Positions 9,773 to 44,757 of a stretch of 64,000 nucleotides of DNA are shown piece by piece. This stretch comes from a candidate division WOR-3 bacterium (GTDB lineage Bacteria > SDB-A). Both the position numbers and the translations under genes were made by a program. The stretch's first letter is position 1, and each line of letters opens with the position of its first letter. The DNA is taken from the NCBI GenBank assembly GCA_016926475.1, contig JAFGON010000023.1, forward strand, positions 559 through 64,558. Direction: 5' to 3'. Below the pieces are notes generated by a model that worked only from the letters and a program-made list of their open reading frames with translations, made no database searches and was not told the origin of the DNA.

Positions 9773-9794
9773 AGTCAATTTCAAAGGATGTGAA

Positions 9795-10202: not shown

Positions 10203-10885
10203 ATTTACTTTTTTTGACTTTCCTCCTGTTTTCAAAGGTGAACTTCATTCAGCCTGATATAACATGGCAAGACGCATTATCTCTGACAAAATCGAAAATC
10301 AAAGACAGTGTTTTTCTTCTCATAGGCGATTCCATGATAGGCGGAGCAGTCGGTTTTTTTCTGTCCGGAGATCTTAAATCCGAGGGAGCGAGTGACGTCA
10401 TCGTCGATTACCATGTTTCGAGCGGACTCTCAAGACCTGATTTTTACAATTGGGATGAAAGGCTTTCTGAGCTTAACGCGATGTATGACTTCGACTACGC
10501 TTTTGTCTTTCTCGGAGCCAATGACAATCAGCCCCTTCACAGATACGGTTCAGGATGGATTGGATACCACACCGAAGAGTGGTTCAGGGAATATCACTCT
10601 CGAGTCGGGTCTATGATGGACGCTCTTCTACGAAAAGCCGAAAAAGTTTACTGGATAGGGTTGCCGCGAATGGCGAGCTCAGAATTCGATGCCGGCACAA
10701 AAGAACTAAACGAGATCTACGAACAAGAAGCGAAAAAAAGACCGCGTGTAATATATATCTCTTCCTATGATCTGCTTGAAGGTAAAAACCAAAGTTTTTC
10801 GGAGTTGAGAACAGAAGACGGATGCCATCTCACGAGCGAAGGCGCAAGGTTGCTCGTGGAAAAGATTATGGAGACTATAAATTAA
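10199..10885 (+). CDS. SGNH/GDSL-family hydrolase (DUF459-like), secreted
   Basis: Start overlaps the previous stop (ATGA). Signal peptide MNLLFLTFLLFS. LLIGDSMIGG (GDS-x block I) and FLGANDN (block III). Confidence 0.5.
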   Translation: MNLLFLTFLLFSKVNFIQPDITWQDALSLTKSKIKDSVFLLIGDSMIGGAVGFFLSGDLKSEGASDVIVDYHVSSGLSRPDFYNWDERLSELNAMYDFDYAFVFLGANDNQPLHRYGSGWIGYHTEEWFREYHSRVGSMMDALLRKAEKVYWIGLPRMASSEFDAGTKELNEIYEQEAKKRPRVIYISSYDLLEGKNQSFSELRTEDGCHLTSEGARLLVEKIMETIN

Positions 10886-12081
10886 CCCTTTCTTTTCTCA
10901 AGGGTTTTAACAATTTCAGGCACAATTTCAAAAAGATCGCCAATTATGGCGTAATCAGCGATTTTCATTATCGGAGCGTCTTTGTCCTTGTTTATAGCCA
11001 CTATGCAGTCCGATGACTGCATTCCGACGAGATGCTGAATAGCGCCGGATATTCCGACGGCGACGTAAAGCTTCGGAGCGACAGTTCTTCCAGTCTGCCC
11101 GACTTGATGTGAATGCGCAATCCATCCTTCATCAACAGGAGGTCTTGAAGAACCTACGGCTCCCCCGAGGTTGTTTGCAAGTTTCTCAATTAGAGAAAAG
11201 TTTTCGGGTGCTTTTATTCCTCTTCCGCCTGAAACGATTATATCGGCATTGTCCAGCCTCAACAAAGAGGTTTCCTCTTTTATGATTCCTAAAAACTGGA
11301 CAGGGTCGTTTAAGATTTGAGCGGAAACATCAAACTCGACCACGTTCGGCTTTTTCGTTGTATCTGGGGTTTTCTTTCTCATCACCCTGGGCCTGACAGT
11401 CGCCATTTGAGGGCGGGTGTTCGGCGTCATTATCGTCGCCATTATCGAGCCTCCCCAAGCTGGTCTTGTCTGCAAGAGGTGCCTGTCAGGCATTTCGACT
11501 TCAAGATGCGTGCAATCCGCGGTGAGTCCAGTCTGAAGCCTTACGGCTACTCTGGATAAAAGAGGTCTTCCCTGCGAGGTCGACCCCGCGAGGACGACTT
11601 CAGGCTTTTCGTTCTCAATAAGATCATAAAGGCTCCGGGCTCTCGGCCCTATCACCGGCTTACGGAGAATCTCTCCTTTAATTATCACGATTTTATCTGC
11701 TCCGTAAGAAGCGAGAGCTTCAATGTCTTTGTCAGGGGCTCCACCGAAAACTACCGCTGTGACAGGAACCTTCAGGACCCCGGCCAACTCACTGCCTTTG
11801 CTGACAAGCTCGTATGAAACTTGGGCGATTTTATCTTCTTCCTCTTCGGTAACTACCATTACTCCCCTGTATTGATCGAAATCTTTCTGAGTTGTGCTGG
11901 TTTTGTGAACCCTGACAATGGCTCCAGTCGGGCATTTTTCGACGCAAATCCCGCATAGGGTGCACAATTCAAAATCAATTTCCGGAAGGTTGTCTTCGTT
12001 CATCTTTATTGCTTTAACAGGACAGACATTTACACACACTGAACAGGAAACGCATCTTTTTTCGATTATTTTAAGGCTCAT
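10882..12081 (-). CDS. etfA: electron transfer flavoprotein alpha subunit with an N-terminal 2x[4Fe-4S] ferredoxin domain (FixB-type)
   Basis: CVSCSVCVNVCP and CTLCGICVEKCP cluster motifs, followed by an ETF-alpha FAD-binding C-terminal domain. Confidence 0.75.
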   Translation of the reverse strand: MSLKIIEKRCVSCSVCVNVCPVKAIKMNEDNLPEIDFELCTLCGICVEKCPTGAIVRVHKTSTTQKDFDQYRGVMVVTEEEEDKIAQVSYELVSKGSELAGVLKVPVTAVVFGGAPDKDIEALASYGADKIVIIKGEILRKPVIGPRARSLYDLIENEKPEVVLAGSTSQGRPLLSRVAVRLQTGLTADCTHLEVEMPDRHLLQTRPAWGGSIMATIMTPNTRPQMATVRPRVMRKKTPDTTKKPNVVEFDVSAQILNDPVQFLGIIKEETSLLRLDNADIIVSGGRGIKAPENFSLIEKLANNLGGAVGSSRPPVDEGWIAHSHQVGQTGRTVAPKLYVAVGISGAIQHLVGMQSSDCIVAINKDKDAPIMKIADYAIIGDLFEIVPEIVKTLEKRKG

Positions 12082-20306: not shown

Positions 20307-21452
20307 CTAAATGCCGAGAACTATTCTGAAACCGAGAGTGTTGGTCTTGATCAGAACATCGGAGAAAGACGGATCCGAAGGTCCTCTTTTCGCGCACCTT
20401 ATGTTTTCCTCGTCGTCTTCCCACGACCCTCCTCTTATCACTTTGTAGGATCCGCTTCCTGGTCCTTTTGGGTCCTGGGAGGGAGAATTTGAATAGTACT
20501 CGCTACCGTAATAATCGTTGCACCATTCCCAGACGTTTCCCGACATGTTGTAGAGGCCATAGCCGTTCGGTTCAAAAGACACAACAGGAGAAGTGTATGG
20601 GTATAAAGCATCACCCGACCAATTGCACATGCTTTGAGGCTGTTCGTCTCCCCATGGATAATAATTCCGTGCCAAACCTCCCCTTGCGGAGTATTCCCAT
20701 TCGGCTTCCGTAGGAAGTCTGTACCCTCCTGTGAACCTGCATTCCCATGTCACCGTGTCGTATTGAGGGTCAAAACCTTCAACCGAAGAAAGCCAGTTGC
20801 AGTACCTCGCCGCGTCATACCAGGATATCATCAAAACCGGGTAGTCGGGGAAACTGTCAAAATAGTTGGCCATGCCGGAAAACCCCGGATCGTAGGGGTA
20901 CTGGTACGAGTTCAAGTCGCAGAATTGTCTGTATTCGACGTTCCTGACTTCTTTTTTCGATATGTAAAACGTCGAAAGGCTCACGCTGTGGACAGGTTCC
21001 TCGTCCTGGCAATGACCCGGTTCGGTAGAGTCGCTGCCCATGAGAAAACTGCTGTCGCAGATAAGCAAAACCAGGTCGGGGTGGAGCACCGAATCAATGA
21101 TGAAATATCCCTGGTTTGTGTCGAAAACCGAACTGTCATCCGACGCTGAAATTTTTATCTTGGCTTTTGCCGTCCTGACCTTTGGGACAGTCCAAAGAGC
21201 TGACAGTCCTTCGACTGCCGTGTCGATTACAATCCACGGAGAATCGTCTGAGACCCTGTAAAACAGGTCAACGCTCTGTATGTCTCCCTCTTTAAACCAA
21301 GATATGGTATACGAACTGTCAGGTGATAAAAAATCACCTGCATCAGGATGAGTGACGGTAATTCTTTTTTCCGGTTGCGGTTCGGGTTCGGTACCTGATT
21401 TTTTTGTGCATGACAAAACAAGGATTGGCAGCAAAAACAGTATCTTACGCAT
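20307..21452 (-). CDS. formylglycine-generating-enzyme (SUMF1/FGE-sulfatase) domain lipoprotein
   Basis: Lipobox LVLSC. FGE-domain motifs GYRLPTEAEWEYSARGG, GNVWEWCNDYY and RVIRGGSW. Confidence 0.75.
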   Translation of the reverse strand: MRKILFLLPILVLSCTKKSGTEPEPQPEKRITVTHPDAGDFLSPDSSYTISWFKEGDIQSVDLFYRVSDDSPWIVIDTAVEGLSALWTVPKVRTAKAKIKISASDDSSVFDTNQGYFIIDSVLHPDLVLLICDSSFLMGSDSTEPGHCQDEEPVHSVSLSTFYISKKEVRNVEYRQFCDLNSYQYPYDPGFSGMANYFDSFPDYPVLMISWYDAARYCNWLSSVEGFDPQYDTVTWECRFTGGYRLPTEAEWEYSARGGLARNYYPWGDEQPQSMCNWSGDALYPYTSPVVSFEPNGYGLYNMSGNVWEWCNDYYGSEYYSNSPSQDPKGPGSGSYKVIRGGSWEDDEENIRCAKRGPSDPSFSDVLIKTNTLGFRIVLGI

Positions 21453-21491: not shown

Positions 21492-21527
21492 AAAAAAAGG
21501 GGGGTGGAAACCCCCCTTTTTACTTTT
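21492..21527. terminator. bidirectional intrinsic terminator (G6-tggaaa-C6 hairpin flanked by A7 and T-rich runs) ending the giant T9SS protein gene
   Basis: aaaaaaaggggggtggaaacccccctttttacttttt. Confidence 0.7.
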
Positions 21528-24500
21528 TACCTGACGTGCAGGAATTTCCCGTTTTCTGAGCCAAAATCAGTCCTGAGCATCCAGAAATACGTTCCAGCTG
21601 AAAGGCTTGTCCCTCTGTCGTCTTTTCCGTCCCAACTGACAATGTGAGTGCCTGCCGGCAGGAAAGTCTCGATTTCTCTGACCTGTCTTCCTGAAATGTC
21701 ATAGACCAGCCATCTAACCGAGGAATTCCCGGGGAGAGACAGCCTGATAGATACCTCGTCCATAAACACGTTGGAAGAGGCAAGTCTGACCGAAAATACT
21801 TCGCTGGGTCCGATTGCTTCTGAAGAAGACTCCATGCCCATCGTTTTTTTGGTCTTAAGCACGAGCCTGTAAGCATCCGACAAAGCGCCAGAGGAGTTTC
21901 TGCCCCCGACAAGGAAGAAATCCCGTACTTCCACGGTGTCTGAAGAACCTTCCGCTTCCCTTGCGGTTATCGAGGCGCTTGAAAGGGGAGAAGGAAGATT
22001 GTCTATTTGATACCAACCATAACCGTTTTCATAGAGGTACGAATTTGCCGAAAACACACCCGAACTCTGACCTCCCGCAAAGACCATGTATGAACCAGAT
22101 GAACCCGCGGAAATTTTACCGGTGTTTCTAAGAGGTGTTCTGTAGTCCGTGCTCCAGTTTATCACGACGGGAGAGGCCGCGCTCACCCTTCCGAAATAGA
22201 CGTTGCCCCCGTAGATATCCCCTCCGGCCAGCGCAATGCCTTCCCTTGAACTTACGGAAAGACCTCCTTCAAAACCTCCGGGAAGAGGAGAAGCCAACAT
22301 GAACTCTTCTGAATTTTCGTCAAAGAAATAACATGAAGGCTTTTCTGTCAAATTGCTCTCGATCACGTAGATGTAATCGCCTCCGATGCCTTCAAAAAAC
22401 GCCAGCACCGGCGAGTTGACGGTGTTGGGTAAGTCCTGGGTCTGGAAGCTTCCAGTTAACTTGTCAAAGATAATTAGTTTTCCGGCGAGAGAAGAGTCGG
22501 AACTCAGCATATAAACTTTGTCCGTGGCGCTGACTCCCTGAGCGTCGGTTATTTTGTAAGGAATGGAAGAAACAACCGACCAGACGTTGCCAGTGGCGTC
22601 GTATTTCATGTGAAGCGTGTCTCCGAATACATTGACATCCCCCGCGTCGTCTATCCAAGAAACAGGACCGGCGACGGCTATAGGCATGTCGGCTATCGGC
22701 TCCCATGACGGCGTGACGCATCTTACAGAGTAAATTGAGGTGTCGTTATGGGGATTCGCGTCTCCGGGGTATTCGATTATTATTTTCTTTATGTAGTGGT
22801 GGTCTTCGACAAGGTCCACGTCTCCAAAATCGACTATGACGCTGTCCAGATAAGAAAGCCCCGTGACGTCGCGGGTTTCATTCATCAGGACTGATCCGCT
22901 GTTTATGTCGGTCACGACGGCTCTTACAGAGAAGTTCGCCGTCTGAGTCCCGTTGTTTTTGACAACTTCTCTTATACTGCTAGACCCCGCGGGTTGGAAG
23001 ACACCCTGTATGTTCGGGTCTCCCCCTCCGACAAAAGCGTCTTTGTCCACCGAGGAGCTCAGGTAGATGTTGTCTATTACGCACGCGCCGTAGTTCTGGG
23101 TGGCATAGTAGGCAAAAGCCACTTCAATTTTAGAAGCGTTCGCGAACGAATCGCTTACGTCGGCTGAGTCAAGCGCCCTGAAGCTCGGAGTCGTCGCCCT
23201 GTAGTATGTCTTTATCTCCTGCCAAGCGGTCCAGGAGCCTTCTTTCAATCCGCACATCAAGACTTTTATCGAGTCGTAGGCGTTGTTGAAGCCTATCCCC
23301 CAGACAAAATACTGAAGGTCTACAGGGTTCCATTCCGCAGGCGATTTTATCGTGTCCACCAGAGGAGTGCTGTGGGATGAAGTATTGCCTATCCAAGCGC
23401 TGTAGTTTCCGGCGTTGTCGAGTTCGAGAGAACTCACTGTCCCTTCGTCTCTTATGTTCCAGCCGTTGGGCCAGTTTACGCTTACTGTGTGCGTCCAGTC
23501 CCATTTCGCCTGATCCTCGAAGTTCCAGACAACTTCCTCGAGGTATGGTCTGTTTAGAAGCCAGACATTGTCTATGCCGAAGAACCTATCGTAAGAGGGA
23601 CCTTCCCTGTGTGTGTATATCACACCGACCTGGACGCTGTCCGCGCCAAAAAGCTGGAGTATCTCCTGGTAAAACCAGTTGGGGTTTGTGTTTGTGGTGT
23701 AGAAATAAACCGCCTCCCAGTCTCCCCAGACCGTGTTTCTGAAAGTCCTCAACATGACTATGGCGGTATCGCCTTGAACGCTTGTGCTCTTTCTGAGGCA
23801 GCCTGTCCAGCATAGATACTGATAATCCACAGACACGGGGGCTGAGGGTGAAAATGTCGTGTCGCATACGTAGTTTTTCCCGGTTCCTATAGCCCACATG
23901 CTCCAATTGTCCCCACTCGTCATCTCCCATCCAGAGTACCATGAGGAGGATTTTCTCTCCCAATTCGAGGATATCTTCCACCCTTGGTTGCCGGGTTCGA
24001 ACGTCCAAGGAGGGTCGAAATAACCGGAAGCGCCTACCTCGATATAGTGCGGTGGAGACCATTGGCCTATGAGCGTTGTGTCTGACTGGATTCTAGCTCT
24101 CGTCCTTATCCCGTAAAGACCTTCGGCTGACCATTGGTGTATGGCGTTTCTGTCGGTGCTCCAACTGGAATAAGCGCTGTCGCCCCAGCTGAACTGGTAT
24201 TCGAGAGTCCCCATTCCTGTAATAGCAGAATCGGAGAGGAAAGCGTAGTTTGTCGACACGTATCCCCACGTTGGTCCGAAGGGAGGGTGTAGAGGTCCTA
24301 TCAACGGACGCATAAAAGTGTCCACCCTTATATCGTCAATGTAGAATCCTGGTCCGTTTCCTGTCGTCCCGTTGTTATCGGAGAGCCTCCAGAGAATCTG
24401 CAGATCCGTGTAGTTTTTTATACCGGTCAAATTGACGCTGTAGAGGGTCCAGTTGGACGAAGACCCCGTCCAGCCGGGCAAAGTCGCTCCCATCCAAGAT

Positions 24501-26569
24501 ACGTTGAATGTTCCCGTGTAAATCGGATTTACATTTTCGCTCGGGATCGTGTCCCAATTTCTTCCGTTGCTGTTCCATCCGCTCGGCATTGAAGCGGAGC
24601 CGTAAAACAAATCAACGCCGTCTTCGTTGTAAGCGCTTTCGTACCACATCCAGAAGAAAAGAACCGCTGAATCGGCAAAAGACGTGTTGATATCCGGAGT
24701 TCTGAACCAACTCGCATTTTGATCGTATATTCCGTCGAGGTCTGTCGCGGTGACGTTCACGCCCGACCTGGCCGACAAGGGGCCAACTACGGGTATTCCC
24801 CTCTGCCAGTCACCGGAAAAATAGTATCCGGCGGTGTCCATCTCGAACTCAAACCCGCTGTAATAAACAGTCCTGGCGTGAAGGGCGACGGTCAAATGTT
24901 CAGGAGACCACCCGGAAAGCCTTGTAGTGTCGCCGGAATCTCTGACCCTCGATCTGACGAAATACGTCCCTACCTCGTCGTAAGTTTTCTGTGCTAAGGG
25001 GTAGATATTCCATCCGGAATAGGTCCCGTCTCCCCAGTCGAATTGGTATTCGACCGCTCCAGCGACAACTTCAGAAGTGAAGTTGTATGAATTATAAGTT
25101 ATACAGGTATCCGGACCTGTCGGCGCGGTAGTGGGTCCCGGTATCAGCATAACTGTGTCGAGTCTTATATCGTCTATGTAAAAACCTGCTCTGTTTCCGG
25201 TTGTTCCGTCGTTGTCCCCGAGCCTCCAAAGAAGTCTTAAATCCGTGGCGTATTTGTACGGGGTCAGGTCCACCTGGTAGAGCGTCCAAATAGGATTCGA
25301 ACCTGTCCAGCCGGGCATGGTCGTGCTTGTCCACGTGACGTTGTAGCTGCCTGTGTATGCGGGGACTATGCTCGCGCTCGGCACGGTGTCCCAGTAATAA
25401 CCCGCGTTGTTCAGCCCCCACGTGAAGGAAGCGCTTCCTACCCAGAGGTTGACTCCGTCGTAATCCTGGCGGGAGTCATACCACATCCAGAAATCGAGGA
25501 TGACCGAATCGCACATTGAAAGGTTTACCTCGGGCGTGTTCAGCCAGCTCGCGTTCGTGTAGTAATTTTCGTTTAACCTGGTCGCCCAAACATTTCCCCC
25601 GCTTCGGGCTCTAAACGGACCTGAAAGCGGAATACCCCACTGCCAGTCCCCGAGCTGGTGCAGGCCGACGAAACCTCCGTCGTCGACTTCAAAACCCCAA
25701 TAATAAGCGGTTTTCGGAGTCACCATGACGGCGAGAAGAGGTGGGGACCAGTTTGAAACCAGCGAACTGTCGTTGGCGTCACGGATCCTGGTCTGGACGA
25801 AATACGTTCCGGGGGTGGTCCAGGAGCGGGAAGACGAGGTTGAAATATCCCACGCCGAATAGCCACCGTCCCCCCACGAGAACTGGTATTCGTAATCTCC
25901 TGGTACGACTTCCGAAGTATAGACGTAATTTGTCTCTACGAGTCCGCTGTCAGTCCCTAAAGGTGCCGTCGTTGGACCCGGGATGTTTCCCCCCTGAAAC
26001 GTCATTATTGAGATGTTGTCCAGACCCAGGTAAAAGTCGGGCCTGAGAGGGGAACCTCCCCCTCCCCTGTAGGCAAAACCTAACTGAATGGTGTCATAAC
26101 CCATTGCGTAAGATGAGATGTCGACGGAATCCCATATCGAAAGATCTGTGCCGTAATAATATTTCAACTGCTGCCAGTTCGTCCAAGCACCCGCGGCACA
26201 GCTCCGTATAAGAATTGAAGCGGTGTCGCGGTCTCTGCCAGCCCTGTAATTGTAACCTATGGAATACTTCAGCCATTGAGTGTAGAAAAGAGAGTCCGAA
26301 ATCTTGGGCGAATAGAGAGTGTCCCTGAGGACATAGTTGCCGGCTCTGTTGCTGCATATCCACATGCTCATCGTCAATGGGTCAAGAGGCCTTATGGCTT
26401 CCTGGTCGTAAACCCTCCACTGCCACCTGCGGGGCCAGTTTTGACCCTGTATTCTCTTGGCGGAGTTCCATCCGTCGGCCCAGGGATCTGTCTCAAAATC
26501 CCAGAAATGATAAGCCGACAGAGTGTAAGCTGTAATCAGCAAACTCAAAAAAATTACTATTTTTTTCAT
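21527..26569 (-). CDS. giant (~1680 aa) secreted multidomain protein with a T9SS C-terminal sorting domain, containing three tandem [PKD-like + ~190-aa] modules
   Basis: Signal peptide MKKIVIFLSLLITAYTLSA. Three PKD-like motifs (YEYQFSWGDGGYSAWD, VEYQFDWGDGTYSGWN, LEYQFSWGDSAYSSWS). Each is followed by a GxxxYYxGFE…DWQWGIP…NASW…FWMWY domain. C-terminal …VRWLVYDISGRQV…SAGTYFWMLRTDFG… is a CTD. GGAGG RBS lies inside the pilY1-like stop region. Confidence 0.65.
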   Translation of the reverse strand: MKKIVIFLSLLITAYTLSAYHFWDFETDPWADGWNSAKRIQGQNWPRRWQWRVYDQEAIRPLDPLTMSMWICSNRAGNYVLRDTLYSPKISDSLFYTQWLKYSIGYNYRAGRDRDTASILIRSCAAGAWTNWQQLKYYYGTDLSIWDSVDISSYAMGYDTIQLGFAYRGGGGSPLRPDFYLGLDNISIMTFQGGNIPGPTTAPLGTDSGLVETNYVYTSEVVPGDYEYQFSWGDGGYSAWDISTSSSRSWTTPGTYFVQTRIRDANDSSLVSNWSPPLLAVMVTPKTAYYWGFEVDDGGFVGLHQLGDWQWGIPLSGPFRARSGGNVWATRLNENYYTNASWLNTPEVNLSMCDSVILDFWMWYDSRQDYDGVNLWVGSASFTWGLNNAGYYWDTVPSASIVPAYTGSYNVTWTSTTMPGWTGSNPIWTLYQVDLTPYKYATDLRLLWRLGDNDGTTGNRAGFYIDDIRLDTVMLIPGPTTAPTGPDTCITYNSYNFTSEVVAGAVEYQFDWGDGTYSGWNIYPLAQKTYDEVGTYFVRSRVRDSGDTTRLSGWSPEHLTVALHARTVYYSGFEFEMDTAGYYFSGDWQRGIPVVGPLSARSGVNVTATDLDGIYDQNASWFRTPDINTSFADSAVLFFWMWYESAYNEDGVDLFYGSASMPSGWNSNGRNWDTIPSENVNPIYTGTFNVSWMGATLPGWTGSSSNWTLYSVNLTGIKNYTDLQILWRLSDNNGTTGNGPGFYIDDIRVDTFMRPLIGPLHPPFGPTWGYVSTNYAFLSDSAITGMGTLEYQFSWGDSAYSSWSTDRNAIHQWSAEGLYGIRTRARIQSDTTLIGQWSPPHYIEVGASGYFDPPWTFEPGNQGWKISSNWERKSSSWYSGWEMTSGDNWSMWAIGTGKNYVCDTTFSPSAPVSVDYQYLCWTGCLRKSTSVQGDTAIVMLRTFRNTVWGDWEAVYFYTTNTNPNWFYQEILQLFGADSVQVGVIYTHREGPSYDRFFGIDNVWLLNRPYLEEVVWNFEDQAKWDWTHTVSVNWPNGWNIRDEGTVSSLELDNAGNYSAWIGNTSSHSTPLVDTIKSPAEWNPVDLQYFVWGIGFNNAYDSIKVLMCGLKEGSWTAWQEIKTYYRATTPSFRALDSADVSDSFANASKIEVAFAYYATQNYGACVIDNIYLSSSVDKDAFVGGGDPNIQGVFQPAGSSSIREVVKNNGTQTANFSVRAVVTDINSGSVLMNETRDVTGLSYLDSVIVDFGDVDLVEDHHYIKKIIIEYPGDANPHNDTSIYSVRCVTPSWEPIADMPIAVAGPVSWIDDAGDVNVFGDTLHMKYDATGNVWSVVSSIPYKITDAQGVSATDKVYMLSSDSSLAGKLIIFDKLTGSFQTQDLPNTVNSPVLAFFEGIGGDYIYVIESNLTEKPSCYFFDENSEEFMLASPLPGGFEGGLSVSSREGIALAGGDIYGGNVYFGRVSAASPVVINWSTDYRTPLRNTGKISAGSSGSYMVFAGGQSSGVFSANSYLYENGYGWYQIDNLPSPLSSASITAREAEGSSDTVEVRDFFLVGGRNSSGALSDAYRLVLKTKKTMGMESSSEAIGPSEVFSVRLASSNVFMDEVSIRLSLPGNSSVRWLVYDISGRQVREIETFLPAGTHIVSWDGKDDRGTSLSAGTYFWMLRTDFGSENGKFLHVR

Positions 26570-26580
26570 CTTCCCCTCCA

Positions 26581-29337
26581 TCAGTAAACTTCGTTCCAGT
26601 AGACGTATTTCTTTTTAAATCCTGGACCTGTTATCTCTCTGATTATAGGTCCGGAACTGGTCATCACAATGACCACAGGTCCGTCAGGACCGACAGTGAC
26701 CTGCGGAGAGGAAGGGACTCCAATGTGTCCGAGGTCTATAGCCTCCAAGAGTCTGCCTTCGAGCAGCGACGCGACATACATTCTCGCGTAACCCGCTCCA
26801 ATGTCGCAGGGGCCTGCTTCTGCTGTGTCGGGGGCGAATGTCGTCCAATATACGTTGTTGCTGTAAATGAGAGGAAGAGACGTGACTTTCTCTCCGGGGT
26901 GGGTGTGCCTGTAGTAATACCCGTAATCACCAGGAGGGGTCGCTGCTGTCGTCAACTCGGCCATGTCGGATATTGTCGCCGCCGCGCCGGATGCCGGAGG
27001 CGATTTGAGCATTAGGAAGTAACCGACTTTCGTTGTGTCCATTGGGTTGTCCCTGTTTCCGGAACCCCAGCAATACCAGTGTTCTCCGCTGAAATCTTGA
27101 GCTACAGCGACGGGGAAAAAGCAAGTCATGTCGGCGTCGGCCGGGACTCCCGCGCTCCCGCTGAAAGCTGTATAAACCGACCAATTTGAAGGATTTGTAT
27201 CTGATTCTGTGTCCATTATCAGGAGGTTTCCGCCCAGATCCGGAGCAACCACCATGTCGACGAAGCCGTTTACGTTCATATCCGTCATCGCCAGAGAAGC
27301 CGGCACTCCGTTTCCGTTGGGGTTTTCCCATCCTTTTGCCCATGCGGTGTTTCCGGTCAAAGCGTAAAAAGCGAAGAAATCTCCCGTGTCCGCTACGAAA
27401 GATCCTGAAGTGTCGGGGACGTATCCCCCACCCATGAAAAATCCCCACATGGGAATTGCCGTGTCGTTGCTGACGGGGTCCACATCCACTTTGAACTGAC
27501 CCGCTGTGGGCTGGGACCAGGTGTCTCCAAACCTTTTATAAAGGCCTCCGATGAGAGTTCCGGATATTTCGGTGATCAACTTGGGATAAGAAGAAGTGTC
27601 TGTCGGCGCCGGCACCTCGGTTATATCGAGAATTATGTAGTTGTTGCCGCCTTCTCTCTGCCCCACAATCAAAATTGTTCGCCAGTCGGTCGGGTCTTTC
27701 ACACCGTCTCCGTCCAAGTCGGCCCACAAATCGGCGGCGGTGACCGGTCCGTCTAAAATATAGGTGTGCTGGTTGTCGAGCGCCCAAACCCTGAGTTTGT
27801 TCATCGCGAATTTCGGCACCCAAGCCCAGACTTCATGCCCGGTAGAGGCGTCTATACAGTGAAGCGTACCCGTGTTTGTACCGACGTACACCCTTTTTCT
27901 GCTGTCTCTGTAAGCGTGGTTTTTTCTGTAAACCACGTATGACGGGTCGCCTGTGTAAAATGGGCTCGGGGCGCCTATCATCAGAGGAGCGCTGTGAAAT
28001 ATGTCTCCCATCTTCCATCCAGGAGACGCGTTGCTGTAACCCTCTCTCGTCCTCTGGACGATGAGGTCTTTTTCCCAGGCGGTGCCGACGTTGACTTCCG
28101 AGGGCAGGACATTCAGAAAACTGAAGTCGGATTTGAGTCCAAGCTGATTCGTGTAGAAAATTTTTCTGCTCGCGGAAGGGGTCTGCTGAAGAGATTCTCC
28201 CGCGGTCCAGATTTCAGAACCCAAAAATGTGTCGCCCGTGAAAACGACAGCTCTGAGCTGACCATCCCAAAACCCTCCTCCCTGAGGACGGAAAGTCGCG
28301 TAAACTATCGCCGTGTCGCTTATCATAGTCCTGACAACAGGGACACTCGCCGGTGAGAACGAAAAGTTGTTCTCGAGAATCGACTGGAAAATATCATGCA
28401 GGGATTGAGCGAGCTCATCGGCGGTCTGAGCTATATAGGCGTAACCCTCGCAGTAATGAAAAGAAGGAGGCAGGGCTTGATAGCCCGTCGAGTAGGCGGA
28501 TTTTGGGTTGTACCATCCGTTTGATGACCCCCAACCGCTTCCAATGGGTTGTGGCCATGTCCACGGATTGTGAACGTGTGTGTGGGGGGGGTTGTACATC
28601 ATGTCTGAATAGTTGTATTTATCGAGATTGTCGGTCCCTCCCCAGTATGCCGCCCAGTTCAGTTCGTTTCTTCCTTTTTGTGTTATTCCTGTGCCGAAAC
28701 CGACCATGAAAGCCGGAATATCTCTGTCTTGGTTGCTCACCGAGGCTTCTCGGACAAGCGACCAGCTTCCGAGCCAGTCGTTTGATTCGGTTATCTGGGT
28801 GTAAGACGCGTTTGTTCCATAGCCGTTTGATTCCCCGTCAGTTATATGTATCAGGTAATAACTCCTGCAGTCGAGGTCTGGATGGGTTGAGTCGTATTCG
28901 TGTATCCATTTTGAAGAAAAGTAAATCGCAGGGCCGTTAGGAGTCCAACCTCCATTTGTGGTGTAGTTGATGTGGGACCATATCGTCGAATAGGGCGTCC
29001 CGAAAGTGTCCGCTCTCAAAGAACCCGTCGCCTCCCCGGGCAGATAGATATACGGACCGGGGTTGTACGTTCCCGAAGGGGTGTTATAAAAAAATCCAGT
29101 TGCCAGATCGACGCCGAGAATATCCCTGTCGGAGTCTTCCACCACTCCGTCTTTGTCTGCGTCGAGAAGGCTTTTTATGACCTGCAGAGCCTGGGTTATT
29201 CTCGATCCGGCCATGCTGCCCGACCTGTCGAGAAAAATCATGGCCGCAGGTTCAGCCGCGACGCGGAACAGGACTTCATCGTTGGCGAGCAGCAAAGCGG
29301 GAAAGACAAGCAAGATAAATAAATTTTTCCACTTCAT
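26581..29337 (-). CDS. pilY1: PilY1/PilC-like type IV pilus tip adhesin with an N-terminal von Willebrand A domain
   Basis: Signal peptide. MIDAS motif FLDRSGSMAG plus ITDGES. C-terminal VYVGTNTGTLHCIDASTGHEVWAWVP matches the PilY1 beta-propeller signature. Confidence 0.65.
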   Translation of the reverse strand: MKWKNLFILLVFPALLLANDEVLFRVAAEPAAMIFLDRSGSMAGSRITQALQVIKSLLDADKDGVVEDSDRDILGVDLATGFFYNTPSGTYNPGPYIYLPGEATGSLRADTFGTPYSTIWSHINYTTNGGWTPNGPAIYFSSKWIHEYDSTHPDLDCRSYYLIHITDGESNGYGTNASYTQITESNDWLGSWSLVREASVSNQDRDIPAFMVGFGTGITQKGRNELNWAAYWGGTDNLDKYNYSDMMYNPPHTHVHNPWTWPQPIGSGWGSSNGWYNPKSAYSTGYQALPPSFHYCEGYAYIAQTADELAQSLHDIFQSILENNFSFSPASVPVVRTMISDTAIVYATFRPQGGGFWDGQLRAVVFTGDTFLGSEIWTAGESLQQTPSASRKIFYTNQLGLKSDFSFLNVLPSEVNVGTAWEKDLIVQRTREGYSNASPGWKMGDIFHSAPLMIGAPSPFYTGDPSYVVYRKNHAYRDSRKRVYVGTNTGTLHCIDASTGHEVWAWVPKFAMNKLRVWALDNQHTYILDGPVTAADLWADLDGDGVKDPTDWRTILIVGQREGGNNYIILDITEVPAPTDTSSYPKLITEISGTLIGGLYKRFGDTWSQPTAGQFKVDVDPVSNDTAIPMWGFFMGGGYVPDTSGSFVADTGDFFAFYALTGNTAWAKGWENPNGNGVPASLAMTDMNVNGFVDMVVAPDLGGNLLIMDTESDTNPSNWSVYTAFSGSAGVPADADMTCFFPVAVAQDFSGEHWYCWGSGNRDNPMDTTKVGYFLMLKSPPASGAAATISDMAELTTAATPPGDYGYYYRHTHPGEKVTSLPLIYSNNVYWTTFAPDTAEAGPCDIGAGYARMYVASLLEGRLLEAIDLGHIGVPSSPQVTVGPDGPVVIVMTSSGPIIREITGPGFKKKYVYWNEVY

Positions 29338-29346
29338 GTTTCCCCC

Positions 29347-29877
29347 TTACCTTGTCCCTTGAATTCCGGACGGATCCACGACGACGGCTACTGGAAGACA
29401 AGCTCTTCCAGAACCGAGTTGTATCTCCATCACCGTGTAGAAAATTCCTTGGTTCGTGAAAATTTCACCGTCGATTTCGACAGCGTAATGCCACGCTTCT
29501 CTCGACAAAATCTTACCCATAAATATTACTTTGACTCCTTCGGGCGATCTTATGGGAAACCCTGGGTCGTAACCCTTGAGCCTTTCTATATCAAAGCCGT
29601 ATTCGTCCGAGCCGTGGTAAAAAATTACCACTGGGTCGTAGACAAAAAAACCGGTCGGGAGAGAGGGGTCGTCTTTCAGCTCGTAGTCTTCAAGGATTTC
29701 TTTCTTTATATCGTCTGTTTCAAGGGCGGTAGAAGAGACGGATAGATCAGACCTCAAAGCGAACCATTTGACAGCCTCTCTCTCCTGAGGAGGGTTTAAA
29801 TCCATGTCTTGTTCAAAAGCTGAAACGTTTTGGGAAAGAAAAAACGTCAGCATAATAAATATCGATATTTTGACCAT
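29347..29877 (-). CDS. secreted hypothetical protein of the pilus tip operon (start moved to the ATG behind GAAGGAGG)
   Basis: Signal peptide MVKISIFIMLTFFLSQNVSA and a strong RBS. The longer ORF-track version overlaps the pilX-like gene. Confidence 0.5.
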   Translation of the reverse strand: MVKISIFIMLTFFLSQNVSAFEQDMDLNPPQEREAVKWFALRSDLSVSSTALETDDIKKEILEDYELKDDPSLPTGFFVYDPVVIFYHGSDEYGFDIERLKGYDPGFPIRSPEGVKVIFMGKILSREAWHYAVEIDGEIFTNQGIFYTVMEIQLGSGRACLPVAVVVDPSGIQGTR

Positions 29878-29888
29878 CTGACCTCCTT

Positions 29889-30332
29889 CTACGGATAGCC
29901 CGTAGTCCCGCCGGGGACCGGCGCCGCTGTTGTTCCGACGAGGATTTGAGAACGTCCTTTTCTCGGGGACGTTATCTGCTCTTCGCCGGTTATCTTGTAT
30001 GAATAATTCAGAGCGACAAGAGCTCTTTCGTTTGCCGTCCAGGAAGAAGTGTAACCCGGTAAAATTTTTGTTGTCTTGGTCATTGTGTCTACGTCGCATT
30101 TGACGTTTCCTATCGTGAAAGTGTCTCCATGGTCGGGTTGGTAAACAGTTCCCAGTGTCGCCGTCACTCTTTCGGCTCCGGCTTCAGTGCCTCTGAAGGC
30201 CTGCGTTTTATGCTTTATGACGTCTGTGATTCTGAGATCAGACGTCGCGAGCATAAAAGCTGCGCCGACAAGAATAGCTCCCGCGACAAGTATGCTCAAA
30301 GCCAAGATGAGCGCTATTCCTTTTCTTTTCAT
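29889..30332 (-). CDS. pilX: PilX-like minor pilin (PilX_N domain)
   Basis: MKRKGIALILALSILVAGAILVGAAF matches the PilX N-terminal helix, which lacks Glu5. Position is consistent with the fimU-pilVWX order. Confidence 0.55.
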   Translation of the reverse strand: MKRKGIALILALSILVAGAILVGAAFMLATSDLRITDVIKHKTQAFRGTEAGAERVTATLGTVYQPDHGDTFTIGNVKCDVDTMTKTTKILPGYTSSWTANERALVALNYSYKITGEEQITSPRKGRSQILVGTTAAPVPGGTTGYP

Positions 30333-30341
30333 CTGCCCCCC

Positions 30342-30947
30342 TTACATCCTGCTTCTTATTGTTACGACCCGGCTGAAAGTTATCGTGTCCGCCGAAGTCG
30401 GATTTTTCACGGCTCTCTGGTTGTAGGTCGTCACCCTCAGTTCTACGTGGGTGACCGCGAGGTTGTTCGCCGTCACAGCTCCGGTGACGTCGTACGGTAT
30501 TATGTCAAAACTCTCAACGCCGGGAATCAAAAGGTTATAGACCAGAGCACCCGCGCTGTATCGGACGTTGTAAACGTTCTTTGAAGCTGCGTCGTAGACG
30601 ATTCCGAAGGTTTCATAGACTGTGTCGAGCGATCCGTTGCCAAAAGTGGCTTCAGGGTAAACGTCTGCGAAATAGCAAAACGAATCGTTTCCTGAAGCAT
30701 TGTAGTGGAGTTTAAAAATCTTGAAAATGGTCGTGTCCTGAAATTCCCTTGTGTTTCCGGGTATTGCCCTCATCTCTCTCGAAGCTATCCTCAAAATAGC
30801 TTCTGCAGACTGTATCGCTTCGGACCTGCCTTCGATAATAGATTGGTGGTTTCTCTCCTGAGTGTAATAATACACGAGGACGCCCACGAGAGCCAAACCC
30901 ATGGTCAGGGCGCCCAAAAGTTCGACCAAAGAAAATCCTTTTTTCAT
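30342..30947 (-). CDS. pilW: PilW-like minor pilin with a prepilin N-terminal methylation motif
   Basis: MKKGFSLVELLGALTMGLALVG (G|FxxxE). RBS GGAGAGGTGA. The longer ORF-track start overlaps the upstream gene. Confidence 0.55.
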   Translation of the reverse strand: MKKGFSLVELLGALTMGLALVGVLVYYYTQERNHQSIIEGRSEAIQSAEAILRIASREMRAIPGNTREFQDTTIFKIFKLHYNASGNDSFCYFADVYPEATFGNGSLDTVYETFGIVYDAASKNVYNVRYSAGALVYNLLIPGVESFDIIPYDVTGAVTANNLAVTHVELRVTTYNQRAVKNPTSADTITFSRVVTIRSRM

Positions 30948-30952
30948 AATTC

Positions 30953-31303
30953 TCACCTCTCCGCCACATAGGTGTGAATTGTATCGATGATCTGCTGACC
31001 TTGCCTGCTCCTCCAAGAGTATTCGACAGTCATGCTCTTTGCCCTCAGGCCTGACGTGTCGGGATAGACAGTCCATGTAATATGTGTCGTCCCGAAAATG
31101 GAGTCGCCACTCGCTATCGTCTCGTAGTCGATGCTCTTTATCCATTCAAGAAAATCCTCTAAGTCGTTTATCGCTTGTTTCTCGATTCGGACGCTCAATT
31201 CAGCCTCCATGGTCCTGACCCTCGCCGCTCCGAGGGCGACAATACCAATTGCAAAGAGGACGACGACCACAAGAACTTCGAGATATGAAAATCCTTTTTT
31301 CAT
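30953..31303 (-). CDS. pilV: PilV-like minor pilin
   Basis: MKKGFSYLEVLVVVVLFAIGIVALG prepilin motif. 116 aa. Confidence 0.55.
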   Translation of the reverse strand: MKKGFSYLEVLVVVVLFAIGIVALGAARVRTMEAELSVRIEKQAINDLEDFLEWIKSIDYETIASGDSIFGTTHITWTVYPDTSGLRAKSMTVEYSWRSRQGQQIIDTIHTYVAER

Positions 31304-31314
31304 AAAAATCTCCC

Positions 31315-31776
31315 TCAGTATTTGATGATTCTGGCAATGCCGGTAGCGGGAATTACTTTTATGGAAAGCCTTCTCGTGCCGCTCTCAATCATGACAGAAT
31401 CTCTCGGAGACGAACCGAGAGAAAGAGAAAGAGATCCGGTTGGAAGAAAAAAAATCTCCGAATACTGGCCGGAATTGAGAGTGACGTTGCTCGGAATATC
31501 CCCTTTGATGTCGAGACTCGTCGCCGATCCTCCGACACCTCCCTGCCATTTGCAGACTTCATAACGCCCCGCAGTCGTGTTGAATCTTACGAGAGTCGTA
31601 TCTGCTTTTGTTATAGCGAGCTCTCTCGCCTCCTTGACGGCCCCGACGACCTGCCTTGTCGCCCTGTCGACTTTGTCGTTTAAAACTCTGACAAAAGGAA
31701 TCGATATTGAGACTATCAGCCCCATCAGCACGACCACGACCATCAATTCTATTATCGAAAAACCCTTTTTAGACAT
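31315..31776 (-). CDS. fimU: FimU/FimT/GspH-family minor pilin
   Basis: MSKKGFSIIELMVVVVLMGLIVSIS prepilin motif. C-terminal region is GspH-like. Confidence 0.55.
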   Translation of the reverse strand: MSKKGFSIIELMVVVVLMGLIVSISIPFVRVLNDKVDRATRQVVGAVKEARELAITKADTTLVRFNTTAGRYEVCKWQGGVGGSATSLDIKGDIPSNVTLNSGQYSEIFFLPTGSLSLSLGSSPRDSVMIESGTRRLSIKVIPATGIARIIKY

Positions 31777-31902
31777 TTATCCCTCCCATTATCTGTAAAC
31801 ATTTATAGGTATAGCAAAACCTTTGCCATAAAACTTGATTTTTATAAACCACAAAATAATGTGGCATATCATAAAAAGGTTTTTTTTTGTGTATAAATAT
31901 TG

Positions 31903-31936
31903 TGAAAATATTTTCAAGTTGTGAAAATATTTTCAC
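31903..31936. promoter_or_regulatory. two copies of a 14-bp perfect palindrome, TGAAAATATTTTCA, centred 19 bp apart in the pilin-operon promoter region
   Basis: tgtgaaaatattttcaag ttg tgaaaatattttcac. The second copy extends to the 16-bp palindrome GTGAAAATATTTTCAC. They overlap a candidate -35 (TTGAAA) / -10 (TATACA) on the minus strand. Confidence 0.55.
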
Positions 31937-31940
31937 ATTG

Positions 31941-31985
31941 CAGAAAAAAAACAAAGGAGAGTCCTGCTGTATAGTAGGACTCTCT
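31941..31985 (-). terminator. intrinsic terminator of the RND efflux operon (9-bp GC-rich stem followed by a T-run on the minus strand)
   Basis: GGAGAGTCCT-gctgtatagt-AGGACTCTC hairpin. Adjacent A8 on the plus strand is the T-run for the minus-strand transcript. Confidence 0.65.
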
Positions 31986-42246: not shown

Positions 42247-44757
42247 ATGCCTTTTATGCCGTTCTTAATGGTTCTGTTGGGAAATCCCTCAGGTATTCCG
42301 GTAACACGTTGGGTGGGACCTGGAAACCCAACTTCTTATGCCGAATGGTCTTCGTCTTTTCAGACCGAAAATCAAGTTTCACCCGCAAACATAGATCGTC
42401 GGCTTTCCCCGGGAGCTGACCTCGTTGAAATTATCGTCGAGTCCGGGCTTTATCCTTTCATAGCCTCGGAAATTTCATTGCTATCGGCCGATATAGCCGC
42501 GGAAGGATTTTCCGTTTCTGTCGACACAGTTCAGGGCGTTCAGTCAATCAACGCCTGTTTCACACTAAGAAATTTCCTTATTTCAAAAATATCTCAGGAC
42601 CTTGTCGGAGCTTACTTCATCGGAGACGTCCCTATCTCATGGTATCAGATGATCGACGACTGGGGCTCGGGTCCAGAAGGATACGAAGAGTTCCCGTGCG
42701 ATTTGTTCTACATGGATCTGGACGGGACTTGGGAAGACGATTCCACATGGACATCCCCCAACAACTATTTGTCTCCCGGTCAGGACGGAATTTTTGATGT
42801 TCACGAAGGAAACACCTCTCCCGAAATCTGGGTCGGACGCCTTTTCCTTTCCTCTTTGGGCGATGAAGATTCGCTTGGTAAGATTTACTTGCGAAGATCC
42901 CATCTCTACAGGACGGATTCTTTTCAATCCGTCAGCAGAGGTTTGAGCTATGTTGACGACGACTGGGCTTACTGGGCGCAGGAGTACAAGGCGAACATGC
43001 AGGAAGCTTATTCAGACGTCACTTCCGTGTCGCAAATTGACACGACCAATCCTGTAAACTACAAAGAACACCTTTCTTCGACATATGAATGGGTCGGAAT
43101 ATTCTGCCATTCCTCACCGAGCCTGCATTCTTTCAAAGTTTCAGGGGGAACTTCATGGTCTGATATGTACGCGTCAGAAATACCTGTTCTGAAACCTTAC
43201 GGTCTTTTTTACAACCTTTTCGCCTGCTCAAACGCAAGGTATATTGAACACAATTTTATGGGTGGCATGTATATTCTCAAAACCCCTTCAGGGCTTGGTT
43301 CAATTGGGACCACAAAGACCGGCAGCATGCTGAATTTTTACCATTTTTATTCACCTCTCGGCTTAGGGCAGACAACCGGAGAAGCTTTTCTTTCATGGTT
43401 TCAATTTATCGCCACAAACGGATTCACAATAGAAGAAAAATCATGGCACTACGGCATGACTTTGATAGGAGACCCGACTCTAAAACTGAAACCGGCGGGT
43501 CCTTTTTTGAAAATCGCGTTGATCTCGGCAAACGATTCATCGGGAAACGGAGACGGCCGAATCGACCAGGGAGAAGAAGCGGTTCTGAGCTTTTCTGTCT
43601 ACAACCATTTATTCTCCCAAAACGCGACAAACATACAGGCAGCGCTTGTTTCTCTTGACTCTTTCCTTACCGTCACAGCTTCATCTTCCTCTTGTCCTGT
43701 CATCAACCCAGGCGACACAATCGAAAACGCCTTTTCCTTCTCCGTCGAAGGGGCGGCTTCATTTACGCCCCATAATGCAGATATTGTCCTCTACATGAAC
43801 GACGGTTTTTCAGGTAGGGTGACGGCGGAAACGTCTCAAATTTTCATTGGAAGACAACCTATTCTCGTGATCGATGACGATGGAGGAATGACTAGCGAAG
43901 AAGCGCTCACCCAGAGCTTGAATTCTTTAGGACGGGGTTTCGAGATAATTGAGCGCGAAAATTACCCCTCTTTGACGGATATTATTAACTCGTACAGCAT
44001 GGTAATCTGGCTGACGGGTTCTTCATCAACGGGTACTTTGACCGCACAGGACCAGAACGACGTAATTGACTATTTTAACCTTTCAGGAAAGTTGTTTCTT
44101 TACGGCCAGGGAATAGCCGAAGAACTCAACGGTTCAGCTTTTTTGTCCTCTTTTCTGGAGGTCTCCTGGCAGGGAAACACTTCCGTTCATTTTCAGACAG
44201 GAACGTCAAACGACCCTATTGGCGACAGCCTCTCAATCGCCACTTCAAACCAGACATCGCAGGACATGCTGACTTCAACCGGTAATTCATCCGTAAGCTT
44301 CAGTTATCAGACCACCCCGCAGGGAGCCTCCATGATAAGGAAAGAAGGCGCCGGAAAAATCGTCTTTGCCGGTTTTGGTTTTGAGGGCGTCGTGTCAAAT
44401 GTCCCTGGATACGCTCACAGAGATACCTTGCTCGCAAGAATCATCGACTACATGGATTTGACGGTCGAAGTCGAAGAAGAAAAACCCAGTTCTGAAGATT
44501 TCGAGTTTTTTATGACCCAGGAAGCGGATAGGATTTACTTCAATTTACCTAAAGAGTTCGAAGGAAATATAACTGTAAAAATCTTCGACGTCTTGGGAAG
44601 AAACATCATCACAGTAAACCCCGGGTCGGCTTCAGATCAAAGAATTTTCTGGAATTTCAGAGATTTCAAAGGGCAGAGAGTTAGGGCTGGGTCTTATTTT
44701 GCGGTTATTTTGACAGATTCAGGATTGTTTTCAGCAAAATTTTCAATCTTGCATTGA
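42247..44757 (+). CDS. peptidase C25 (gingipain-like) domain protein with a T9SS C-terminal sorting domain
   Basis: Candidate catalytic His (GIFCHSSPSLHSFKVSGGTSW) and Cys (LFYNLFACSNARY) in gingipain-like contexts. CTD …VKIFDVLGRNI…AGSYFAVILTDSG…. Confidence 0.5.
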   Translation: MPFMPFLMVLLGNPSGIPVTRWVGPGNPTSYAEWSSSFQTENQVSPANIDRRLSPGADLVEIIVESGLYPFIASEISLLSADIAAEGFSVSVDTVQGVQSINACFTLRNFLISKISQDLVGAYFIGDVPISWYQMIDDWGSGPEGYEEFPCDLFYMDLDGTWEDDSTWTSPNNYLSPGQDGIFDVHEGNTSPEIWVGRLFLSSLGDEDSLGKIYLRRSHLYRTDSFQSVSRGLSYVDDDWAYWAQEYKANMQEAYSDVTSVSQIDTTNPVNYKEHLSSTYEWVGIFCHSSPSLHSFKVSGGTSWSDMYASEIPVLKPYGLFYNLFACSNARYIEHNFMGGMYILKTPSGLGSIGTTKTGSMLNFYHFYSPLGLGQTTGEAFLSWFQFIATNGFTIEEKSWHYGMTLIGDPTLKLKPAGPFLKIALISANDSSGNGDGRIDQGEEAVLSFSVYNHLFSQNATNIQAALVSLDSFLTVTASSSSCPVINPGDTIENAFSFSVEGAASFTPHNADIVLYMNDGFSGRVTAETSQIFIGRQPILVIDDDGGMTSEEALTQSLNSLGRGFEIIERENYPSLTDIINSYSMVIWLTGSSSTGTLTAQDQNDVIDYFNLSGKLFLYGQGIAEELNGSAFLSSFLEVSWQGNTSVHFQTGTSNDPIGDSLSIATSNQTSQDMLTSTGNSSVSFSYQTTPQGASMIRKEGAGKIVFAGFGFEGVVSNVPGYAHRDTLLARIIDYMDLTVEVEEEKPSSEDFEFFMTQEADRIYFNLPKEFEGNITVKIFDVLGRNIITVNPGSASDQRIFWNFRDFKGQRVRAGSYFAVILTDSGLFSAKFSILH

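Follow-up and report, generated by a model that had tools for sequence, protein, structure and literature searches.

In a 64-kb stretch of DNA from a metagenome-assembled genome (MAG) of a candidate division WOR-3 bacterium (the whole stretch hereafter being the window), genes for prepilin-type minor pilins and for the pilus-tip protein PilY1 are followed, as the last member of a seven-gene set, by a gene for a secreted multidomain protein of 1680 amino acids (aa), hereafter the giant. Its tail resembles the C-terminal sorting domains (CTDs) of type IX secretion system (T9SS) cargo. Whether a type IV pilus is assembled, and what it binds, depends on minor pilins and PilY1, and T9SS cargo makes up the surface coat and adhesins of bacteria of the Fibrobacteres-Chlorobi-Bacteroidetes (FCB) group. 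On balance, we favor the reading that the set is a type IVa pilus (T4aP) minor-pilin/PilY1 operon with a T9SS-type surface protein encoded on the same transcript, such that a tip adhesin and a surface binding protein would be made together. We prefer it because of the tight and conserved gene spacing, the base composition shared by the giant gene and pilY1, the absence of a conserved promoter within the operon and the character of the slot that the giant gene occupies. The arrangement is a variation on an operon type already known, not a novel type of system; a functional link between the pilus tip and a T9SS surface protein is plausible but unproven, as judged from the genomic sequence, and is confined to one small lineage. 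In the searchable literature, we found no description of a pilY1 operon ending in a CTD-bearing giant, nor a relevant paper on PilY1 together with a T9SS or on a T9SS or type IV pili in WOR-3.

Organization and expression signals of the operon

An earlier note on this DNA had described seven co-directional minus-strand genes with short gaps, and this layout is confirmed, with its gene assignments largely right. All seven open reading frames (ORFs) are in place (Table 1), the gaps between them being 11, 5, 9, 11, 9 and 11 nucleotides (nt), and a Shine-Dalgarno (SD)-like GGAGG or GGGGG lies 5-9 nt before every start. The G+C content of third codon positions (GC3) is 0.53-0.60 in g1-g3, pilY1 and the giant gene versus roughly 0.44-0.54 in the neighboring genes. 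At the junction of the last two genes, the pilY1 TGA (26583-26581) is followed by a GGAGG (26579-26575) and the ATG of the giant gene at 26569. The ribosome-binding site, which had been placed inside the last pilY1 codons, thus sits in the spacer past the stop. An alternative ATG at 26581, overlapping the pilY1 stop, is not shared by the orthologues, and hence we take 26569 to be the start of the giant gene. Spacers of 11-15 nt with a GGAGG-like SD recur in the related loci L001, L003, L008, L009 and L091; altogether, SD-bearing spacers of this length occur in six of seven related loci, and no terminator stands between pilY1 and the giant gene. The best match of a promoter scan, a sigma-70-like candidate at 26669-26642 in the 3' end of pilY1, was rejected as its synonymous sites are not conserved, and hence nothing points to a conserved internal promoter. 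The two genes therefore look as genes of one operon should, in that they share a strand, are separated by a short spacer, have an SD for the second gene and keep their arrangement in relatives. These features make co-transcription of the giant gene with the pilY1 operon likely.

Directly past the TAA of the giant gene, the operon is closed by the hairpin AAAAAGGGGGG-TTTCC-ACCCCCCTTTTTTT, whose stem has 12 base pairs, 6 of them GC, ahead of a T run; this bears out the clean intrinsic terminator previously reported. A single transcript would start in the 232-nt region before g1 and end at this terminator. That upstream region runs from the acrB terminator to g1 and contains, just past the acrB terminator, two tandem copies of a perfect palindrome. 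In an alignment of upstream regions, L001, L003 and L008 show no conservation of the palindrome DNA, and since the region upstream of g1 is not conserved across the relatives, a role of the palindromes as operator is left without support.

Table 1. Coordinates of the operon, its signals and the PorV/PorQ-family gene in the window
Feature	Position	Strand	Description
g1	31776-31315	-	153-aa prepilin-type minor pilin, FimU/GspH-like; N-terminus MSKKG/FSIIE
g2	31303-30953	-	116-aa prepilin-type minor pilin, PilV/GspI-like; N-terminus MKKG/FSYLE
g3	30947-30342	-	201-aa prepilin-type minor pilin, PilW/GspJ-like by position; N-terminus MKKG/FSLVE
g4	30332-29889	-	147-aa PilX/PilK/GspK-like protein
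g5	29877-29347	-	176-aa secreted protein, no fold assigned
pilY1-like	29337-26581	-	918-aa tip protein, vWA + beta-propeller
pilY1-giant spacer TGGAGGGGAAG	26580-26570	-	11 nt, holds the SD of the giant gene
Giant gene	26569-21527	-	1680-aa secreted multidomain protein
Giant C-terminal sorting domain	21781-21530	-	predicted, about the last 84 aa
Intrinsic terminator, bidirectional	21521-21494	-	closes the operon
Tandem palindrome TGTGAAAATATTTTCACA	31901-31937	-	two copies of ~18-19 nt; candidate operator/promoter region
PorV/PorQ-family outer-membrane protein gene	3215-4162	-	context, outside the operon

The minor pilins and PilY1

The 918-aa protein, PilY1-like in the earlier note, proves to be an authentic PilY1. 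A signal peptide is followed by an N-terminal vWA domain with a metal ion-dependent adhesion site (MIDAS) and a C-terminal beta-propeller; a DLDGDGVKD loop lies at residues 540-548. The MIDAS motif DRSGSM occupies residues 37-42, VYVGTNTGTLHCIDASTGHEVW is also present, and the MIDAS residues D37-x-S39-x-S41, T132 and D167 are invariant in two family alignments (A4 and A7). The protein passes PF05567 (29.0 versus a cut-off of 28.1), and the family profile A4 matches the C-terminal domain of Pseudomonas aeruginosa PilY1 (3HX6) with an E-value of 4.9e-42. The same structure is the top PDB match in a Foldseek search (TM score 0.61 on the target, E 7e-15) with an AlphaFold2 (AF2) model whose mean predicted local distance difference test (pLDDT) score is 73. 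The N-terminal part of this model matches vWA structures (4C2A, 6FPY and integrin); the Pfam VWA model is not significant for the window sequence. The PilY1 proteins of a sister clade (P0006-P0009) have about 150-190 extra residues right after the MIDAS DxSxS of their vWA domain, and this insertion is missing from PilY1 of the window lineage.

The prepilin motif G/FxxxE occurs, by regular-expression search, in exactly three ORFs of the window, namely g1, g2 and g3. The earlier labels of FimU/GspH-, PilV- and PilW-like prepilins hold as far as this motif goes, but the specific models stay below their cut-offs. TIGR02532 is passed by g1 (24.6 versus 16.3) and g2 (18.6 versus 16.3), and Pfam N_methyl by g1 (23.9 versus 21.2); g3 falls short of the latter (14.9). 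Below threshold are also the matches of g1 to Pfam GspH (17.5 versus 21) and TIGR01708 (30.8 versus 80) and that of g2 to TIGR02523 PilV (23.5 versus 52.2). No PilW model matched the operon proteins at E<=0.1 in the Pfam and NCBIfam scan. We assign the probable identities of the minor pilins (FimU/GspH, PilV, PilW and PilX) by gene order and length over many loci: g1 stands first in the conserved order g1-g2-g3-g4-(g5)-pilY1, orthologues of g3 occupy the same position in dozens of loci, and g4 is always found between the PilW-like gene and pilY1.

The g4 protein has an N-terminal hydrophobic helix lacking Glu5 (MKRKG/IALILAL) and an invariant C-terminal VPGGTTGYP. It has no Pfam or NCBIfam match at E<=0.1, and its previous label of a PilX_N-like protein is thus not backed by a PilX_N match; a g4 homologue in locus L045 (see below) has a faint GspK match (E 0.006). 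It is the most conserved product of the operon, with 73-95% identity in relatives versus 63-90% for AcrB. The g5 protein, which had been noted as a secreted hypothetical, indeed has a Sec signal peptide, ending VSA/FE. It has no family match in Pfam or NCBIfam and evolves fast (34-63% identity in relatives), and its position is kept in WOR-3-type clusters. Profile searches of PDB sequences gave nothing meaningful for either g4 or g5. Taken with PilY1, a protein that marks T4aP minor-pilin operons but not the type II secretion system (T2SS), the order and motifs of these genes support the reading as a minor-pilin/PilY1 module.

Domain architecture and predicted sorting tail of the giant

The giant is 100% identical to NCBI JXA84_02245, from a candidate division WOR-3 MAG. 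Its signal peptide (residues 1-22) is followed by a MAM/choice-of-anchor-J-like jelly-roll domain (~23-195), two tandem modules each combining a PKD-like and an InhA-like MAM domain (~201-480 and ~481-765, with about 50% mutual identity), a third PKD-like domain (~766-868), two further MAM-like domains (~870-1030 and ~1035-1200), an Ig-like domain (~1201-1285), a six-bladed Kelch propeller (~1289-1573) and the CTD (~1593-1680). Self-comparison recovers three MAM/choice-of-anchor-J-like domains, the module duplication and the third PKD-like domain. Family scans with the seven giant orthologues return choice_anch_J (8.9e-12), InhA-like_MAM, PKD and Kelch, and profile matches in the PDB are to PKD, Kelch and FlgD structures. 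We found no HExxH or other obvious catalytic motif in the giant, and hence a non-catalytic, binding or adhesive role is a reasonable inference from its sequence.

For the last 480 aa, the AF2 model (pLDDT 80.6) comprises the Ig-like domain, the Kelch propeller, which is matched by Kelch structures at TM scores of up to 0.77, a disordered linker and a seven-stranded sandwich. The seven strands of the latter fall in model residues 393-478 with a pLDDT of about 75-88; the type-A CTDs of T9SS cargo are described as a 3+4 seven-stranded Ig-like sandwich (PMC11285876). A multidomain Foldseek search of the C-terminus, dominated by the Kelch domain, gave no direct CTD match. In sequence, the tail passes PF13860 FlgD_ig (32.4 versus 27), and TIGR04183 is matched, weakly to moderately, by all seven giant orthologues (best E 3.1e-6). 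A hidden Markov model (HMM) of the giant CTD also finds the last ~80 aa of three other proteins encoded in the window (42247-44757, 4164-5915 and 6023-7282). The same domain thus ends unrelated exported proteins, as a sorting signal would. Sequence and model together support the prediction of the tail as a T9SS-type-A/FlgD_ig-type sorting domain. Two of these proteins are encoded on the plus strand, namely a Peptidase_C25-like secreted protein of 836 aa (42247-44757) and a BNR-repeat secreted protein of 419 aa (6023-7282), which have the same CTD type; the latter also passes PF18962 (27.4 versus 27).

The third, a CTD-bearing M6/InhA peptidase (4164-5915, minus strand), is followed after 1 nt by the PorV/PorQ-family gene. 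The product of this gene is identical to an NCBI "PorV/PorQ family protein", is matched by an HMM of PorV-like proteins with an E-value of 4.5e-12, and a small profile (A8) matches Flavobacterium johnsoniae PorV (6H3I_F) with an E-value of 1.3e-5. By homology, the gene is evidence that T9SS-type sorting components exist in this genome. Candidates for two more components were rejected: the C25-like protein as a PorU sortase, and the FGE-sulfatase lipoprotein encoded next to the operon (see below) as PorK/GldK, as neither reaches the respective equivalog model. In a longer related contig, we saw no T9SS core genes beside the PorV-like gene. The combination of tail and PorV-like protein makes T9SS export of the giant likely: after Sec export, a T9SS-type pathway with PorV would recognize its CTD, and the giant would end up either on the cell surface or released from it.

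Phyletic distribution and the slot after pilY1

Full-length matches of the giant in protein databases (n=7, 43-100% identity, 1674-1685 aa) are all encoded directly after an orthologue of pilY1. These loci also have acrB upstream and the FGE-sulfatase, AA-kinase, yceD and plsX genes downstream, all in synteny. All of them represent a single orthologous locus of one small WOR-3 lineage, and so the check for a CTD protein following pilY1 in related genomes, proposed in the earlier note, comes out positive in all seven loci but only within a single syntenic lineage. Three loci (L013, L014 and L015) labelled "Desulfuromonas sp. SDB" or "uncultured Desulfuromonadaceae" have the same syntenic locus, with PilY1 62-81% identical; these names are probably mis-assignments of members of the WOR-3 lineage.

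The GTDB species representatives were scanned with an alignment of 10 PilY1 sequences, and the 79 loci thus found, 75 of them outside the window lineage, were annotated with HMMs built from the cluster genes. The common order is again g1-g2-g3-g4-(g5)-pilY1. In 33 of the 75 outside loci, the slot after pilY1 is filled by a lipoprotein gene of ~294-390 codons, whose start often overlaps the pilY1 stop (L004 13318-14202, L007 6216-7100 and 31 further loci among L016-L088). This lipoprotein combines a lipobox with a C-terminal Ig domain of the Big_9/He_PIG/Cadherin_5 kind and spans WOR-3, Stahlbacteria, TA06, Myxococcota and Spirochaetes. From its distribution and coupling, it looks like a widely conserved partner of PilY1, a role of which we found no description in the literature. 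The giant shows no homology to it by BLASTP, and hhalign gives a probability of 0.1%. As the slot normally holds the lipoprotein, to which the giant is unrelated, the giant is, on this comparison, a non-homologous and lineage-specific replacement of the pilY1-coupled lipoprotein. The placing of the giant in the "pilE position", as the earlier note had it, hence does not fit this PilY1 subfamily, in which the slot belongs to a ~300-aa Ig-domain lipoprotein. Horizontal transfer of the giant gene on its own was rejected because its GC3 is the same as in pilY1 and g2-g3. One WOR-3 MAG contig (L020 1-12682) has two complete tandem g1-g4(-g5)-pilY1 clusters, with a lipoprotein gene after the first.

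A different arrangement linking a CTD protein to PilY1 occurs in L045 (JALXEF010000084.1, 1-9609, labelled WOR-3) and L063 (CAZXAO010000070.1, 3-7986), both with 60-64% GC. Here the order is a large CTD protein, a PorV/PorQ-like protein, a PilX-like homologue of g4, a g5-like protein and PilY1, with overlapping genes or short gaps. The CTD protein is an Ig-repeat protein of at least 1565 aa, the PorV/PorQ-family protein reaches 73-77 bits against a cut-off of 90 on NF033709 (E about 1e-20), and PilY1 has the vWA-propeller architecture with 61.7 bits on PF05567. No FimU, PilV or PilW genes are visible in this cluster, and relatives of the L045 PilY1 in the metagenome scan amount to two fragments. 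By their gene content, L045 and L063 hint at a recurrent link between CTD proteins and PilY1 in WOR-3. The pairing of a CTD gene with a following PorV gene is the same as that of 4164-5915 and 3215-4162 in the window. Past the PilY1 gene, L045 has two Roadblock/MglB-like ORFs (9676-10437) and a small GTPase-like ORF (10427-10957), as judged by eye only.

Alternative readings and implications

The following observations weigh against the T9SS-linked operon reading. The window sequence of the giant tail reaches only 18.6 against a cut-off of 23 on TIGR04183, PF18962 is not reported for it, and the PDB sequence matches of its CTD are to FlgD and not to T9SS CTDs. In favor of the earlier call of a T9SS C-terminal domain are the TIGR04183 matches of all seven orthologues and the tail common to three other proteins, and against it is the sub-threshold window sequence. 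The T9SS-bearing phyla as listed exclude WOR-3 (PMC11285876), and PorV/PorQ-family names occur in phyla without known T9SS, such as Elusimicrobiota. The window contains no pilus machine (PilB/C/D/M-Q) or major pilin. In L011, the spacer between pilY1 and the giant gene is 100 nt long and AT-rich, such that an independent promoter is possible in that locus. As the whole neighborhood is syntenic in the lineage, the fact that pilY1 and the giant gene stay side by side gives little independent support for a functional tie. Among the 79 scanned loci, CTD genes have come to stand immediately next to pilY1 clusters about three times independently, namely in the window lineage, L045/L063 and L022, in which a CTD protein ends 220 nt upstream of the pilY1 cluster. 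CTD genes are frequent (about 4 of the 53 ORFs in the window and several percent of the genes in these genomes), and hence this number is not clearly above chance.

The abundance of CTD proteins also favors the main rival possibility, which we consider less likely, that the giant is an ordinary T9SS-type surface protein that landed at the 3' end of the operon, with deletion of the lipoprotein gene, and has nothing to do with the pilus. This would fit with the restriction of the pilY1-giant arrangement to one lineage of general synteny, with the lack of a CTD gene in the clusters of the sister clades, with the absence of homology between the giant and the lipoprotein it replaced, and with the faster evolution of the giant (44-50% identity) relative to all cluster products except g5 (PilY1 57-63%, g4 73-81%). 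However, the 11-15-nt spacer is kept even where AcrB has diverged to 63% identity, all seven loci have an uninterrupted reading frame for a product of 1674-1685 aa, and the giant gene shares its GC3 with pilY1. Moreover, the gene in this slot is normally translationally coupled to pilY1, suggesting that a partner of PilY1 is encoded there, and a second, differently organized CTD-PorV-PilX-PilY1 cluster exists in WOR-3.

Going further in the opposite direction, the giant could have succeeded the ancestral lipoprotein as a partner of PilY1 anchored in the outer membrane, the two forming one adhesion device; in variants of this idea, the tip complex could dock on the giant or be retained by it, or the giant could be a receptor module passed to the pilus tip. 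The giant sits in the exact slot of the conserved pilY1-coupled lipoprotein, both are predicted to be envelope-anchored, and the loss of the ~150-190-aa vWA insertion in PilY1 of the window lineage, relative to the lipoprotein-bearing sister clade, is a correlated change. L045 and L063 are also in keeping with such a device, in that they place a CTD adhesin, a PorV-like protein, a PilX-like protein and PilY1 in a tight cluster free of FimU, PilV and PilW genes. Against these points stand adjacency statistics that are compatible with chance and a set of seven sequences, which is too small to measure co-evolution, and we regard a physical partnership as unlikely. We consider it very improbable that the small genes specify a T2SS-like pseudopilus tip (GspH/I/J/K-like) and that the cluster serves secretion: g1 indeed finds its best specific matches, below threshold in both cases, in the GspH models TIGR01708 (30.8 bits) and Pfam GspH (17.5), a faint GspK match comes from the g4-type proteins and pilus machine genes are missing from the window, but a bona fide PilY1 with vWA and propeller in the cluster makes a pseudopilus unlikely, related loci have further pilin genes just downstream, and all Gsp scores are far below the cut-offs.

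Returning to the preferred reading of a T4aP minor-pilin/PilY1 operon with a co-transcribed T9SS-type surface protein, the sequences show which genes are present, their order and spacing, the identities of their domains and their distribution across loci, and we infer co-transcription, T9SS export, an adhesive function of the giant and any cooperation with PilY1. By what is established for FimU-PilVWX-PilY1, the minor pilins and PilY1 would leave the cytoplasm through Sec, prime the assembly of the pilus and be located at its tip. Co-expression would then provide a long-range pilus-tip adhesin together with a short-range, surface-anchored binding protein. A more speculative and rather improbable extension is that a PilX-like/g5/PilY1 module of WOR-3 is wired to T9SS-type surface proteins as a hybrid adhesion/motility device in both the window and the L045/L063 lineages. 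If so, the giant would replace the lipoprotein as the envelope partner of PilY1 in the former, and in the latter, a CTD adhesin and a PorV-like shuttle would go with PilX-like and PilY1 proteins, with MglB/MglA-like genes after them. A joined operon would suggest that pilus-based and surface-anchored attachment are made as one unit in an uncultured phylum that lacks an experimental model. The practical value of the window itself is modest, as the bacterium has not been cultured and the link is, to date, only a genomic one; the conserved lipoprotein and the second WOR-3 cluster provide concrete hypotheses for tractable relatives, such as Myxococcus for the lipoprotein.

Genomic context

The window is ordinary chromosome. 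Upstream of the operon, on the same strand and with its own terminator, is a TetR/OEP/MFP/AcrB efflux operon; downstream are genes for an FGE-sulfatase lipoprotein, a 440-aa protein and an amino-acid kinase, followed by yceD, plsX and fab genes. The FGE-sulfatase lipoprotein gene (20307-21452, minus strand) lies right after the operon terminator and is kept in this position in all relatives. Its product has an N-terminal Ig-like part in addition to the FGE-sulfatase domain, and its top NCBIfam match is PorK/GldK (141 bits versus a cut-off of 350). Elsewhere in the window (52940-54697, minus strand), a UmuD-like (Peptidase_S24) and a UmuC-like (IMS/DUF4113) gene form a pair of the translesion polymerase V operon type.

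Comparison with known systems

The minor-pilin operon of P. aeruginosa is fimU-pilVWXY1Y2E, and Myxococcus xanthus has equivalent minor-pilin/PilY1 clusters; the comparison with both draws on established knowledge, the sequence comparison covering PilY1 (3HX6) only. The window operon shares with that of P. aeruginosa the order GspH/FimU-like, PilV-like, PilW-like, PilX-like and PilY1, the prepilin leaders on the first three products and a PilY1 with an N-terminal vWA domain, whose MIDAS is also a feature of M. xanthus PilY1, and a C-terminal propeller matching 3HX6. It differs in the extra secreted g5 between pilX and pilY1, in the lack of pilY2 or pilE after pilY1, the last gene instead encoding the 1680-aa CTD protein, and in that its proteins fall below the specific FimU, PilV, PilW and PilX models. 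Closer to hand is the canonical cluster of its own subfamily (for example in L004, L007 and L016-L031), g1-g2-g3-g4-(g5)-pilY1-lipoprotein(-pilin-pilin), with which it has in common homologous g1-g5 and PilY1 (the latter 27-32% identical) in the same order. In the canonical cluster, however, the sister-clade PilY1 is ~190 aa longer and the slot holds the lipoprotein instead of the giant.

As for secretion, the giant is like the type-A cargo RgpB and HBP35 of Porphyromonas gingivalis in having a signal peptide and a ~80-aa domain with seven predicted strands at its extreme C-terminus. As in Bacteroidota T9SS cargo, this CTD is common to unrelated secreted proteins, with a PorV-family gene beside one of them; unlike in such cargo, the tail of the giant is closer to FlgD_ig than to Por_Secre_tail. 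The clusters in L045 and L063 differ from the window in that their CTD protein is encoded upstream and has Big_13, Big_5 and CopC domains, and in that the PorV-like gene is part of the cluster. They resemble it in the tight, co-directional linkage of a large CTD protein with PilX-like, g5-like and PilY1 genes, and in the C-terminal PxPxGTxxY motif that the g4 proteins of both arrangements have in common.

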